64,000 bases of DNA from contig OX597820.1 of assembly GCA_951406725.2 (NCBI GenBank), forward strand, positions 102,300,001-102,364,000, in the 5' to 3' direction. The stretch comes from Octopus vulgaris (Eukaryota). This document shows, one piece after another, positions 4,462 to 64,000 of this stretch; position 1 is the first letter of the stretch, and the number at the start of each line of letters is the position of its first letter. The notes under the pieces were generated by a model. That model searched no databases. It was not told the origin of the DNA and saw only the letters and a program-made list of their open reading frames with translations. A program made the translations under genes and the position numbers.

Positions 4462-4785
4462 TTGCAGCGTGGAAGGTGTTTGTAAGCCATTTAAGAAACA
4501 CACAAAAACCGTTACATTCACTTCAACATTTAAATTTAATTTGCCAAAATATTTTCGTCGCTTTGAGACCGCGACCTGTTCACTGACAAAAATATCGTGC
4601 TAACAGGTCGCGGTCTCAAAGCGATGAAAATATTTTGACAAATTAAATTTAAATGTTGAAGTGAATCTAACGGTTTTTGTGTGTTTCTTAAATGGCTTAT
4701 AAACACCTTCAACGCTGCAACTGTTTTCGTTCCAGCACACGATCTCAGATCAAGTCACTTGCTATGCAAGTACATCTCTGTAACT
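4462..4785 (+). mobile_element. PLE-like fold-back element (arms 4462-4580 and 4602-4720) in (TA)n
   Basis: 119-bp inverted arms with few mismatches; right arm continues to 4785; HHR motif inside. Confidence 0.75.
4540..4590 (-). ncRNA. Minimal type I hammerhead ribozyme, G3-C8 core variant
   Basis: UUUGUCA GUGAACA G GUCGC-loop-GCGAC GAAA AUAU UU UGGCAAA; stems I and II pair; palindromic AAUAUU stem III. Confidence 0.7.
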
Positions 4786-4886
4786 ATATATATATTTATA
4801 TATATATATATATATATGTATATTGGTAAAAACAGTAAGATAACAAAAGAAAGAAAGAGACCTCAATATTATGTAAATAGAGGAAA

Positions 4887-5281
4887 TCTTTATATATAAA
4901 AGTGAGGTTGTGTGTCTGTCTCCTACGATTTAGATTCCTAACTACTCCCACATTTTGCGGTGCAGTTTAACCAAAACCGGGTATCTTATAGTCGTGATTC
5001 ATATCGAGACCGTCTGGGTATTAGCGCGCGTCTACGATGAGTCTACGATTTAAAAAAAAATTTACCATCAATTTTTCCCATTTTTAATCCATTTTTGACA
5101 TATATAAGGGAAGTAACTCTCTAAAATTTATTATTAAATCTCAGAACGTAAAAAGCTACAGTAACACCCCTCCCCCTTTGTGGTTAGCCATATTGAGATG
5201 GCTATTATACTTTACATCTCTAAAAATGCTTATATAATTATTTCCCTTACAAACCCGAGCAACGCCGGGCGATACTGCTAG
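4887..5281 (+). mobile_element. Non-autonomous Helitron
   Basis: 5' TC, subterminal hairpin CCCGAGCAACGCCGGG, 3' CTAG, inserted between A and T, no TSD. Confidence 0.85.
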
Positions 5282-5309
5282 TATATATATATATATATAT
5301 ATGAATATT

Positions 5310-5760
5310 CTTTTATTCTTTTATTGTTTTACTTGTTTCAGTCATTTGACTGTGGTCATGCTGGAGCAACACCTTTAGTTGAATAAATCAGCACCAGGAG
5401 TTACTCTTTGTAAGCCTAGTTCTTATTCTATCAGTCTCTTTTTGCTGAACTACTAATGATGGGGATGTAACCACACTAACATCAGTTGTCAAGTGATGGA
5501 GGAAGGACAAACAGAGACACAAATAAATACATACATACCTATATACATATATATATAAACATATATATATATATATATATATATATATATATATATACGA
5601 TGAGCTTCTTTCAAGTTCCATCTGCCAAATCCTCTCACAAGGCTTTGGTTGGCCTGAGGCTATAGTAGAAGACACCTGCCCAAGGTTCCACACAGTGGGA
5701 TTGAACCCAGAACCATGTGATTGGAAAGCAAGCTTCTTACCACACAGCAACTCTGGTGCT
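5310..5760 (-). mobile_element. SINE family A
   Basis: Reverse-complement homology to 1793-2190. Confidence 0.8.
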
Positions 5761-5879
5761 TACAGTATATATATGCATATATATATTTATATATGTATAT
5801 ATATGTATATATGAATATACACACACACATGCAAATATATATGTATATATACAGACACACACACACCCACACACACACA

Positions 5880-6119
5880 TATACTTTATTTAAAAGCAGC
5901 AGAAATTCAACAAAACCTGTTATTCGGAGTTTCCCGTTCCTGTTCGTCGGACAGTTTTGTTAAAAAGAAGAAAAAAAACTGTCCGACGAACGGGAAGTGA
6001 AACTCCGAGTAACAGGTTTTGTTGAATTTCTGTTGCTTTTAAATAAAGCATATTACTCTACCCCTGGTATTTGAGTACTCTTTTTTCCACCTTGTTTCAC
6101 ATTTATGTGTTTACTCCGG
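5880..6119 (+). mobile_element. PLE-like fold-back element with C4-variant HHRs (5917-5954 minus, 5979-6015 plus)
   Basis: About 78-bp inverted arms; CUGU CCGACGA..GAAA CUCCGAG UA ACAG; same family as 62636-62866; TA-flanked. Confidence 0.7.
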
Positions 6120-7574
6120 TATATATATATATATATATATACACACACATATATATATATACACACACATATATATATATATATATATATATATATATAT
6201 ATATACAGCACATGCTCACATAAAAGGTACATACATTCACATACACACAAAAACATACTCATACACACATAGTATATACATTGATGAATATATAGTATAT
6301 ATATTGATGTATTCTTCAAATGGCTTATATATTGGTCTTATAGTTTGTTATTTCAATGCTGGTAATTTGAATTGATAAGCACTGGCTTATGTGATTAATA
6401 TGTCTGGTACACTTTTATGGAGTGGAACAAACACCAAGTCTAGAAAGATAACTTCTGTTGTGATGGCACTAGGACAAAAAACATGAACGTGTTAAATATA
6501 ATTCTACGCGTAGATATTTCAAAAACACTTTGTTCTTTCTGTCACAGTGACCAGTAATAGGAATGGTATCTAGCTGTAATAAAATCTGTAGACGTAGCTC
6601 CATGAAATACAATGGATAATATTAAGATGGCTACAAAGAGTGGTTCCTGATTTAAGCACAAGGCTAATATTTTTGAGGGGACAAGGTTAGTCAATGGACC
6701 TTAGTCTTTGATTGGTACTTTATTTTATTGACTCCAAAAGTGTGAAAGGTACTTTATTGTATTGACTCTAAAGGGGTTAGATTTCAACTCAGTACGTAAA
6801 ACACCAGAATAAATACCGCAAAGCATTTTCCTGAAGTTCTAATGATTTGACCTGCCCATCACTTTGAAATTGTTTCAAAACTTATTTTTTATGTAGACAT
6901 AAATTTGGGGGTTAGGGATTTAGTCGATGCCATTGTCCTCAGCACTTGATTGGTGCTTTTATTTATTGACCCTGAAAGGATAAAAAGCATGGTTGATTTT
7001 TGGAGGGATTTGAACTCAGAATGTAAAAAAAAATGGCACTCATGGTGATGTCTCATAAAAGTATCCCCACAGTGTCATGTAAAAGGACCTGTGTGATGCC
7101 ACACAAAAGCACCAATGTGGTGCCACATAAAAGCACCCATGCAGTGCCATGTAAAACTACACATCACACTCTATAAGGTGATTGGCATTAGAAAGGGCAC
7201 CCAGCCATAGAAACCATGCCAAATCAGACTGGTGTTGGTTATGATGATGAGTGTTCCAGTTGATCCAATCAACAGAACAGCCTGCTCATGAAATTAATGT
7301 GCAAGTAGCAGGGCAATCCACAGATGCTACGAGGGTTAACTACAATTTTCATTCAATTTCCCTTATTTTTTAATGATTTCTTAGTTTTTGCTTATTTTTT
7401 TTTATTTCTTCAAAAATTCTTAGAAAAAATTATACTTCATTAAAATATATGTCAGCGGTAATATTTGAACTCGGGATGTAAAGAGTGAGAACAAATGTAG
7501 CATAGCACTTTTCCCATGAACTAATGGTTCTGCCTGCATCCTGCCACAAGAATGCTATAATAATCATCAATCAG

Positions 7575-61758: not shown

Positions 61759-61966
61759 TAGAACTGAGATAAGAGGTTTAATACCTTGTTTTGTTTTTCG
61801 TTTTGGAAAAAACGAACAATGTTTTAGAGAAGCAGAAGATTGGCGGGCGTCTTTTGCCTTCTCCCATTTATACCATCCTTTTCATCACTCATCTCATTAA
61901 TGTTTTTTGTTCAGCCCACAAGCTACTTCCTCTGTATACGGCCTTCATGGCCAATGAAATGAAATA
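61759..61966 (+). mobile_element. Retroposed 3' fragment inserted in a SINE A head
   Basis: TSD aagtagcttg at 61749-61758 and 61967-61976; ends GGCCTTCATGGCC AATGAAATGAAATA. Confidence 0.65.
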
Positions 61967-62635
61967 AAGTAGCTTGCTTACCCACCACATGGTTCTGGCT
62001 TCAGTCCCACTGTGTGGCACCTTGGGCAAGTTTCTTATACTATAGCCTTGGGCCAACCAAAGCCTTGTGAGTGGATTTGGTTGATGGAAACTAGAAGAAG
62101 CCCATTGTATATATATATATGTGTGTGTGTGCATGTGTGTGTATTTGTGTATGTTTGTATGTTTGTGTGTCTGTGTTTGTCCCTCCAGCATTGCTTGACA
62201 ACCAATGCTGGTGTTTTTACATCCCTGTAACTTAGTTTGGCAAAAGAGACCGATAGAATAAGTACTAGGCTTACAAAGAATAAGTCCTGAGGTCGATTTG
62301 CTTGACTAAGGCGGTGCTCTAGCATGGTCGCAGTCAAATGACTGAAACAAATAAAAGAATATCATATTCTTCCTTTTATTCCTTTATTCTTTTACTTGTT
62401 TCAGTTATTTGACTGCGACCATGTTGGAGCGCCACCTTGAAGGGTTTTAGTAAAACAATTTGACTCCAGGACTTATTTTTTAAGCCTAGTACTTATTATA
62501 TCAGTCTCTTACGCTGAACTACTAAGTTATGCAGATGTAAACACACCATCACAAGTTGTCAAGCAATGATAGGGTGATAAACACAGGCAGAAGGACATGC
62601 ACACACATAGATATATGGATATATATATATATATA

Positions 62636-62866
62636 CCGGAGTAAACACATAAATGTGAAACAAGGTGGAAAAAAGAGTACTCAATACCAGTGGTAGAGTA
62701 ATATGCTTTATTTAAAGCAGCAGAAAATTCAACAAAACCTGTTACTCTGAGTTTCCCGTTCCCATTCATCGGACAGTTTTTTCCAGCAAAAACTGTCCGA
62801 TGAACGGCAACGGGAAACTCAGAGTAACAGGTTTTGTTGAATTTTCTGCTGCTTTAAATAAAGTAT
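62636..62866 (-). mobile_element. PLE-like fold-back element with two C4-variant HHRs (62739-62776 minus, 62793-62830 plus)
   Basis: CUGU CCGAUGA A CG GCAA CG G GAAA CUCAGAG UA ACAG; inserted in the (TA)n of a SINE A. Confidence 0.75.
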
Positions 62867-63315
62867 ATATATATATATAGATATATACAATGGGCTTCTT
62901 TCAGTTTCCGTCTACCAAACTTACTTATGTGGCTTTGGTCAACCTGAAGCTATTGAGAGACTGAACCTGGAGCCATGTGGTTGGGAAGCAAGACTTTTAC
63001 TACACACCCACATACATATATGTATATATATATATATATATATCAATTGATTTGGATCTTAATGATTGTGATTATCAACTCTATAGCCTCTTGTGTAACA
63101 GAGGAATGCTGATAATTATTCCAATTTCATCATCTTGTTAACAGAGTAAATGACATAATCTCTACTTGTTTAATAATGTTAGGTACTCTTCAACTCCAAT
63201 CCCAAGCAAAATTATGTTTGCATATATCTATTCATCGTCATATATGAAAATGAATGGACATGTGCAGCTAATTTTGTTACAGATATTATATATATATATA
63301 TATATATAAATTTAA

Positions 63316-63366
63316 TTTGCCAAAATATTTTCGTCACTTTCAGACTGCAACCTGTTCACTGACAAA
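63316..63366 (-). ncRNA. Second G3-C8 hammerhead copy
   Basis: UUUGUCA GUGAACA G GUUGC..GUGAC GAAA AUAU UU UGGCAAA. Confidence 0.65.
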
Positions 63367-63508
63367 ATTCTCTCTCTCTCTCTCTCTCTCTCTCTCTCTC
63401 TATATATATATATATATATATATATATATATATATAATGTGACCACGTGTGTACTGTTGGTGATTTTTTTCCTCCGTCTTCCCTTTTCTGGATCTTTCCT
63501 TTTCCTAT

Positions 63509-63543
63509 GTTTCTGACGAAGAGCTCCGCTCAAAACGTTAAAC
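63509..63543 (+). ncRNA. Minimal hammerhead (G12A) in a TA-flanked insert 63437-63645
   Basis: GUUU CUGACGA A GAGC UCC GCUC aAAA CG UU AAAC; palindromic AACGUU. Confidence 0.65.
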
Positions 63544-64000
63544 CCTCCTTCTTCCCTTCCTTCCTGAGCATCCAATAATACTATATTTGTTCCACGTCCT
63601 CGCGTTGTTGTGTTTTCTCTTTGTGTTTTCATGTTTGGATTAACTATATATATATAAACAGATAGATATAATGTGTGTATACATATATCTTTTATCTTTT
63701 ACTTGTTTCAGTCATTAGACCAGCCATTAGACTGCAGCTATACTGGGGCACTGTCTTGAAGAAGTTTTAGTCAATTGTATTGGCTCCCCAGTACTTATTT
63801 CTTTAAAGCCTGGTACTTACCCCATTGGTCTCTTTTGCCAAACCACTAAGTTATGCGGACATAAACACACCATGGTGTTATATGCCCCAATACTGGATTT
63901 TCTACTCCTAACCTGCATTTCTAATCTTAACCATTAATTCACTGATGCCAGTACTAAAATGAGGTGAGTAGTCTGAAAAATTATAATTTTATCAACAATT

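Follow-up and report, generated by a model that had tools for sequence, protein, structure and literature searches.

Hammerhead-bearing fold-back loci in a 64-kb window of the Octopus vulgaris genome as probable by-products of Penelope-like element insertion

A 64,000-nucleotide stretch of the Octopus vulgaris genome (assembly GCA_951406725.2, contig OX597820.1, positions 102,300,001 to 102,364,000; termed the window, to which all plain coordinates refer) contains ten loci at which two inverted arms diverge from a common centre, one of them running on into a longer tail and most of them carrying a type I hammerhead ribozyme (HHR) motif. The question raised is whether such loci are mobile ribozyme units in their own right, as proposed in a preliminary description of this DNA, or the remains of something larger. 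The evidence given below makes it probable that they are 5'-truncated insertions of Penelope-like elements (PLEs) joined head-to-head to an inverted, tail-less copy, that they arise as a dead-end by-product at each insertion, and that the HHR they hold is predicted to be silenced. The setting is a microsatellite-rich region of 35% GC in an assembly of 2.8 Gb and 227 contigs.

The origin of the arms is clearest in those HHR families, designated by letters, that lead to coding elements. In family C, an open frame at 12982-13977 terminates in a GIY-YIG endonuclease domain, and the window holds the final 2.9 kb of the element together with a 1.05-kb inverted partner; the supposed short element at 11233 is in fact a 4-kb insertion holding coding sequence. 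The 150 scored genome matches of this family include copies with intact frames of 970-984 amino acids. The window copy is 96-98% identical to copies whose intact frames measure 970-981 amino acids, and the copies are arranged as pseudo-long terminal repeat (pLTR), HHR, leader, open reading frame (ORF), 3' untranslated region (UTR) and second pLTR. In family A a GIY-YIG frame was reached by extending the arm in the upstream direction, and reverse transcriptase-endonuclease (RT-EN) frames of 723-727 amino acids were present in six of eight candidate loci examined. The flanking pLTRs of these parents are 92-95% identical to the window arm (94-95% for the 5' pLTR); one candidate had a 3' pLTR only and one had none. 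The parent 3' end coincides with the arm end in four cases (L371, L373, L374, L376) and with the tail end in three (L372, L375, L377), and the tail itself is the leader running into the ORF at the 5' pLTR. Partial tandems with HHR supplied the pLTRs at L086, L371-L374, L376 and L377. In family B, one locus (L382) contains a partial 487-amino-acid frame with RT, CX3CxxC and GIY-YIG segments plus an inverted partial copy, each of the two being followed by ~1 kb and then by an HHR with a G3-C8 core. Family G retains a remnant of the endonuclease C terminus upstream of the HHR at the 55838 locus. Family D copies share up to 876 bp more upstream, and no ORF was found within 1.5 kb upstream. The arms are thus the pLTR ends of RT plus GIY-YIG elements located elsewhere in the genome, which supports the PLE origin suggested in the preliminary description, and 5' extension reached the coding partners it had anticipated for A (727 amino acids), C (980 amino acids) and, in part, B. 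Target-site duplications are unreadable inside (TA)n flanks.

Families A and C share the motifs RWK and DKT, a CxCX5C linker, and CxxC and CxH around E/N, as well as an HHR and (TA)n targets, a combination that would place them in the Hydra clade of endonuclease-bearing (EN+) PLEs as described in PMC8557442. Their repeat periods of 3.4 kb (A) and 4.7 kb (C) exceed the <3 kb of that clade, a size that is a tendency and not a strict criterion. The supplement of the same paper lists an octopus Hydra family, Hydra-1_Obim (File S1), with (TA)n targets and an HHR (File S2) that differs in sequence from those found here.

The relationship between the two arms was analyzed in family A, for which 4,724 exact 24-mers spanning the arm/tail boundary occur genome-wide. 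The sample was the first 90 listed C1 copies, chosen solely by this 24-mer, and covers tail-bearing copies from one chromosome. In 83 of the 90, at most 50 nt of sequence preceding the core is retained, three extend more than 200 nt, and most are cut down to the final 80-150 nt on each side. An inverted match was present in 57 copies, 55 of them real and two being TA noise, and in 47 of the 57 the outer end of the partner coincides with the arm end. An adjacent (TA)3+ run is present at 81 of the 90 tail ends and at 49 of the 50 arm ends, against a background of 6%. The 55 fold-backs display 48 different junctions, none seen more than twice. When the polarity of the junction was scored after exclusion from allele counts of L263, a near-identical neighbour of L262, the tail-less arm reached further 5' in 17 of 54 fold-backs and the tail arm in 10, while in 27 the two were equal within 8 nt. 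Several junctions centre on a 4-nt palindrome.

Concordance between arms at subfamily sites was 33/34 against 10.8 expected and 44/45 against 17.2 expected, compared with agreement at chance at a CpG-decay site (23/29 against 21.9), and arm identity was 95.8% within a copy versus 91.0% between copies. Rare variants were common to both arms three times and private to one arm 79 times. The concordance rules out an origin of the two arms from different RNA molecules. A junction like that at 62636 has 250 exact copies genome-wide. The first 30 of these belong to three subfamilies; the tail is right-hand in 16, left-hand in 12 and undetected in two, none has it on both sides, and both tail sides occur within the youngest subfamily. 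This junction therefore arose repeatedly, and transposition of the unit as such, which preserves tail side, is not needed to account for it. Variable 5' truncation with an inverted partner is also seen in families B, C and D, with varied junctions in B and D; 17 of 25 family B loci outside the carrier described below are fold-backs as read by eye, and the 5' ends in both A and B are concentrated a short way upstream of the HHR.

The preferred interpretation of these data is as follows. Full-length parents encode RT with a C-terminal GIY-YIG domain between HHR-bearing pLTRs, and the 3' end of a copy is fixed at either of two points, the arm end or the tail end, beside (TA)n. The endonuclease would cut the two strands of a (TA)n target, and from each nick reverse transcription of one and the same RNA may then be primed, one from each start site. 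Both cDNAs usually halt inside the HHR core or no more than ~20 nt before it, presumably through stalling near the ribozyme, and their ends would be joined, often through a few shared bases, to leave two diverging arms and exactly one tail. A stub of this kind may later be amplified as cargo of another mobile element, as has happened at 4462. The scheme is consistent with the behaviour of the Poseidon PLE in vitro, which cuts and extends both strands and starts reverse transcription at two sites bounding the tail (PMC11167929). The Poseidon protein also requires sequence downstream of the start sites (PMC11167929), and since the octopus stubs are without such sequence they are, by analogy, likely dead ends.

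The consequence for the ribozyme was explored by structure prediction. In a head-to-head fold-back each transcript contains one HHR preceded by its own antisense copy. Whichever way transcription runs, the antisense arm is made before the HHR, so that read-through from either side is predicted to give a long hairpin and not a ribozyme. For the 62636 unit the predicted fold has a free energy of -137 kcal/mol (z -21.6), and the predicted probability that the core is unpaired is 0-0.08 for whole units but 0.42-0.75 for an arm on its own. The model thus predicts that the HHR is silenced by its mirror copy. Retrozymes and minimal HHRs depend on cis dimers (PMC4209133; PMC7229834), and such dimers cannot form in head-to-head fold-backs.

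Several observations weigh against this account. The classes of junction expected from the proposed two-primer step could also result if a symmetric fold-back lost its centre and one of its ends, and the family A junctions themselves are divided, with overlap in 27 of 55 and extra bases in 22. The in vitro data on Poseidon are from a different PLE clade. No ORF was found for families D, E and F or for the old loci, and four families had no relative in 1.67 Mb. Pfam gave RVT_1 at E 7.8e-4 for the family C parent, below its cut-off, and nothing for A or B; because the parents are scarcely recognized, their protein identity rests on motifs, and a PDB search likewise returned little or nothing for the parent proteins. 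Family A alone was analyzed in depth, family B being read by eye. Finally, the folding is an equilibrium prediction only, in which single family A arms also fail to form stem I.

Within a PLE origin, it could be that the inverted arm is made by self-priming of the cDNA or of an antisense RNA on a palindrome upstream of the HHR, with the endonuclease or host repair then trimming one end and the centre. Palindromes at the junction have led to a proposal of such self-priming in rotifer PLEs (PMC3846280), and self-priming would explain why the arms have subfamily variants and some private variants in common, why 27 of 54 junctions are near-symmetric and why several centre on a 4-nt palindrome. Untrimmed, it would always leave the tail on the strand that reaches furthest 5', whereas the opposite polarity was the commoner, at 17 against 10. 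A central deletion of the palindrome could yield that polarity, but the second cut would then have to fall exactly at the arm end, which is also the natural 3' end of direct copies, and the single junction with its tail on either side (16 against 12, both sides being seen in the youngest subfamily) fits poorly. Self-priming with trimming is accordingly kept as a possible but lesser explanation, and among the two routes to a PLE by-product double priming is moderately preferred.

A retrozyme-like or pLTR-only element, transcribed and re-inserted whole by PLE proteins, was the reading of the preliminary description and is considered unlikely. A search with the full unit did return 40 of 40 scored copies of near-identical layout, one junction is present in 250 exact copies, the 5' ends in A and B gather at one place, and cis-acting pLTRs of rotifers have mobilized other sequence in trans (PMC3846280). 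However, a full-unit query selects its own layout, and a fixed mobile unit was rejected as query bias once samples drawn by the arm only or by pattern gave diverse junctions; the junction with 250 copies arose independently more than once; the identical copies of 4462 have their flanks in common and travel with a carrier; and in family A each insertion has a new junction, with HHRs on opposite strands and not head-to-tail. Less probable still, to the point of being negligible, is that the loci are miniature inverted-repeat transposable elements (MITEs) or foldback DNA transposons in which HHR motifs are incidental. Inverted arms, TA context, short length and thousands of copies are all MITE-like, but in place of the symmetric terminal repeats and DNA transposase that the preliminary description would have accepted as contrary evidence, the ends are asymmetric with a one-sided tail, the inner boundaries vary (48 different junctions among 55 fold-backs), the partners are RT plus GIY-YIG, the motifs exceed their number in shuffled sequence and family B preserves its 3-8 pair through a double change. 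For families A, B, C and G the MITE reading is already refuted.

The window was read by eye over its full 64 kb, and 23 type I HHR motifs plus one half-core remnant (4602) were counted in 13 families, slightly above the roughly 20 motifs and dozen families first reported. All nine fold-back loci, the PLE at 55838 and the five solo HHRs of the preliminary description are present where it placed them, and the inverted arms at the ten two-arm loci were verified by self-BLAST and reading. The features are:

3105-5281, plus strand: Helitron-like non-autonomous carrier with the 4462 fold-back as cargo; 5' TC, 3' hairpin and CTAG.
4462-4783, unstranded: family B fold-back; tail-less arm 4462-4597 with an intact G3-C8 HHR (4583, minus).
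4602-4783, unstranded: second arm of the same fold-back, tail-bearing, with half a core.
5884-6119, unstranded: family A fold-back of an older subfamily; U4C cores at ~5950 (minus) and 5983 (plus); right-hand tail; in (TA)n.
10423-10981, unstranded: old fold-back; arms ~70-75% alike, microsatellite spacer, both cores broken.
11234-14159, minus strand: family C 5'-truncated PLE copy with the end of the GIY-YIG ORF (open frame 12982-13977) and the 3' UTR.
11234-11347, minus strand: tail of that family C copy, the canonical HHR of which has its core at 11467.
14157-15201, plus strand: family C inverted tail-less partner; canonical HHR, core 15088.
16560-16610, minus strand: solo HHR motif; canonical core, weak stem I.
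16800-16853, minus strand: solo HHR-like motif; A9 altered, palindromic stem III.
26727-27186, unstranded: family D fold-back; canonical HHRs with long stem II (26973 minus, 27046 plus); left-hand tail.
40955-41165, unstranded: old fold-back; arms 73% alike, both cores broken.
48632-48992, unstranded: old insertion; one broken HHR, the inverted arm (43 bp) having none; canonical core in a relative.
50881-51190, unstranded: family E fold-back; minimal HHR at 51100 (plus), left-arm core broken.
55838-56540, unstranded: 3' fragment of a family G PLE (minus); remnant of the endonuclease C terminus ~56020-56290, minimal HHR at 55926.
56420-56540, unstranded: family G inverted partner; core broken.
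57380-57430, plus strand: solo HHR-like motif; 9-bp stem I, G8 altered.
62636-62863, unstranded: family A fold-back; U4C cores at 62772 (minus) and 62797 (plus); left-hand tail; in (TA)n.
63304-63367, minus strand: family B fragment; G3-C8 core.
63437-63644, plus strand: family F solo pLTR end; G12 altered, GAAA in most relatives shown.

The core is intact in 13 of the 23 motifs (4583, ~5950, 11467, 16599, 26973, 55926, 62772 and 63359 on the minus strand; 5983, 15088, 27046, 51100 and 62797 on the plus strand), and these 13 have the type I features of C3-G8 or a paired swap, GAAA, UH and stems I-III. In the other ten the core is broken (both at 10420, both at 40970, one each at 48640, 56478, 16843, 57390 and 63513, and the left arm of 50872). 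The idea of a ribozyme pool accordingly calls for caution, ten of the 23 cores being broken and those in fold-backs being predicted to be paired away. HHRs diverge on opposite strands at every two-arm locus, although not every locus has a complete core on both arms: 48640 has one on a single arm, and the tail-bearing arm of 4462 is without the 5' half of the core. Similarly, a (TA)n setting applies to most of the ten, the three without flanking (TA)n being 48640, 50872 and 55838. The motifs at 16599 and 16843 are on the same strand but have no mutual similarity. Relatives were found for nine of the 13 families, by genome search for A, B, C and D and within 1.67 Mb for E, F, G, 40970 and 48640; for 10420, 16561, 16805 and 57385 there was no relative within the 1.67 Mb of genome sequence, and no genome-wide search was made for these four.

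A descriptor of canonical core plus stems found five motifs in the window against 0-2 in 20 block-wise dinucleotide shuffles. With one core mismatch allowed the count was 10 against 0-5 across 10 shuffles, and with U4C and G3-C8 cores added it was 9 against 0-1 across 20. These comparisons are partly post hoc, because long stem II and variant cores were admitted to the descriptor only after inspection of the window. The initial narrow scan (stem II no longer than 30 nt) gave no strict match in the window and missed families C and D, several families having a stem II of 50-60 nt; it gave 8 against 1-5 with one mismatch and 9 against 3-10, which is no excess, with two. No hammerhead family was present among the 150 of 377 Rfam matches listed, in which microsatellite matches dominate.

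The window also contains very abundant SINE (short interspersed nuclear element)-like repeats of 150-250 bp (for example 1790-2198, 24406-24816, 48993-49403 and 45041-45275) belonging to several families, many of which end at (TA)n and often adjoin PLE stubs. A 200-bp imperfect palindrome lies at 19153-19356, a 248-bp inverted repeat pair (93%) at 17847-18094 and 30821-31065, and a local 300-bp duplication at 31767-32504.

The 4462 fold-back has a separate history. Its long arm (182 nt) was identical in 40 of 40 scored genome copies, and 30 of 30 such loci have microsatellite flanks and ~2.2 kb of surrounding sequence in common, the flanks at 94-99%. Because of these common flanks, the reading of a young mobile fold-back was rejected. 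The shared unit, 3105-5281, begins with TC, ends with a hairpin and CTAG, and occurs in head-to-tail tandems; an A precedes the 5' end in 19 of 20 copies and a T follows the 3' end in 30 of 30. These are the hallmarks of Helitrons, namely 5' TC, a 3' hairpin with CTRR and insertion between A and T (PMC8969392). The genome holds 2,917 exact 5' ends of this carrier and 633 exact copies of the 4462 cargo junction; two of ten loci picked by the 5' end hold the cargo and eight have the termini without it. Besides the family B fold-back, the window copy of the carrier contains a SINE-like piece and, at 3614-4094, an internal tandem repeat of 107 bp. The 4462 fold-back has thus been amplified secondarily as cargo of a Helitron-like element, a carrier that the preliminary description did not recognize. 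The carrier resembles canonical non-autonomous Helitrons (PMC8969392) in its termini, A/T site, tandems and captured repeats, and differs in carrying, among its cargo, a PLE fold-back that holds a G3-C8 hammerhead. A literature search for a Helitron capturing Penelope in octopus found no paper.

The family B core has G3 together with C8 in all 13 complete cores that were located through an anchor lying elsewhere in the repeat; genome-wide, the core 21-mer has 5,762 exact matches with both arms counted. This double change indicates that the 3-8 pair has been maintained. In a PLE HHR, the C3G/G8C double change partly restores cleavage (PMC11167929), and natural U3-A8 cores have been published (PMC3088659; PMC4209133). 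In the literature covered, which does not extend to Lunse et al. 2017 on PLE hammerhead variants, G3-C8 was encountered only as an engineered variant. Family A cores are mixed, with U4 in 16 of 41 readable cores and an intact C4 form in 19, and the full-length L372 has U4; the U4C change reduces activity in vitro yet functions in a viroid. Another repeat family (L094, L329) was observed to have a U3-A8 hammerhead core.

The scale of the phenomenon was estimated from sixty 10-kb stretches at round coordinates chosen blind, with neighbours of the window and targeted stretches excluded. These 600 kb contained 24 HHR motifs against 1-8 in eight shuffles, corresponding to ~33 descriptor-intact HHRs per Mb and an estimate of ~92,000 genome-wide (bootstrap 46,000-144,000); the descriptor undercounts intact cores, since weak-stem motifs such as 51100, 55926 and 16599 are missed. 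With the same descriptor the window has nine in 64 kb, ~3.5 times the average, so the very large pool envisaged from the window is indeed large while its density was overstated to that degree. Counts published with other descriptors are ~9,000 for Xenopus tropicalis and 4,000 for coelacanth (PMC4209133), more than 6,000 for a coral and up to 120,000 copies of axolotl retrozymes; the estimate, ~ten times that of Xenopus tropicalis by a different descriptor, would place the octopus genome near axolotl in total hammerheads. Inverted repeats with arms of at least 40 bp, at least 88% alike and within 2 kb numbered 31 in the same 600 kb, including at least seven PLE fold-backs and seven SINE pairs by eye, with the others left unassigned.

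Further observations concern the coding elements and their neighbours. Family C (12982-13977; L082:4526-7465) has a long asparagine-rich insert between RT and endonuclease, and rotifer PLEs likewise have such inserts (PMC3846280). Among the family A and C parents (L102-L130, L372, L086), the family A 3' UTR holds its own (TA)n, ~130 nt before the HHR, so that the element contains the repeat it targets. At L372:200-1723 and L381:7240-8795, family A and B copies have inserted into further PLE families, the endonucleases of which have a CX3CxxC linker. Splice-acceptor-like AG and pyrimidines are located at or near the 5' end of stem I in families A, B and C (62786-62790 region, L381, L086), a placement similar to that in the Penelope intron of Drosophila virilis (PMC4209133). 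That stubs begin at a spliced exon boundary was not adopted, as family A copies retain several upstream bases. Four contig-level runs, presumed to be RNA, gave no splice joint on one family C copy; such runs cannot show ends, strand or cleavage, and they speak neither for nor against expression. A candidate family B parent at L379/L380 (G000:C1:6243000-6259000) was rejected, the adjacent ORF being not RT but a frame that is dCMP-deaminase-like by its motifs. This uninterrupted frame of 182-221 amino acids lies in a ~6.2-kb tandem repeat and directly adjoins an opposite-strand family B pLTR; it is possibly a PLE-made retrocopy.

The anatomy of these loci is already known. PLE insertions described in PMC3846280 and PMC8557442 have the same inverted 5'-truncated copy on the 5' side, a tail at one end, microsatellite targets and an HHR in the pLTR; the tails in octopus, ~70 nt long in family A and 115 nt in family C, exceed the 30-40 bp given for them, and most family A copies are reduced to the last 80-150 nt. 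The minimal PLE hammerheads of PMC4209133 are the same type I form with a short palindromic helix III and an extra nucleotide after A9, and likewise fall into numerous divergent families within one genome, chiefly as parts of truncated PLEs, with opposite-strand HHR pairs 100-700 bp apart already noted; whereas that paper reports U3-A8, the octopus families include G3-C8 and U4C cores and several with a 50-60-nt stem II. Non-LTR retrozymes (PMC7229834; bioRxiv 10.64898/2026.07.22.740005) also have a type I HHR, are PLE-related and non-coding and reach 10^5 copies, but their HHRs are arranged head-to-tail on one strand and release monomers and circles. The octopus fold-backs are head-to-head, vary in length and have coding RT-EN parents, without a fixed non-coding monomer, and so are not retrozymes. 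At the level of search listings, the literature on octopus Penelope hammerheads and on PLE twin priming contained nothing on these stubs or on double priming. An octopus repeat annotation from 2026 reports active Penelope and Helitron families (PMC13282606); the word 'ribozyme' is absent from its main text, and its supplements may list these families. Three details merit follow-up, namely the scale, the G3-C8 core and the Helitron cargo.

The origin of tandem and inverted PLE insertions has been named as an open question (PMC8557442), and the thousands of short two-arm copies in octopus, together with young intact parents, mean that it can be addressed both through junction statistics and in vitro. 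For ribozyme biochemistry, family B provides a naturally occurring G3-C8 core. The stubs are also built-in double-stranded RNA, and among the close inverted repeats of the sampled 600 kb PLE fold-backs were no fewer than SINE pairs; this is relevant to hyper-editing in cephalopods (PMC5625713). It is conceivable, if doubtful in its full extent, that PLE insertion is routinely double-primed and has left tens of thousands of self-silencing hairpins, including a natural G3-C8 family and one hairpin spread by a Helitron to more than 600 sites, and that these would be a main source of the double-stranded RNA underlying octopus A-to-I hyper-editing, which is reported to be extreme.

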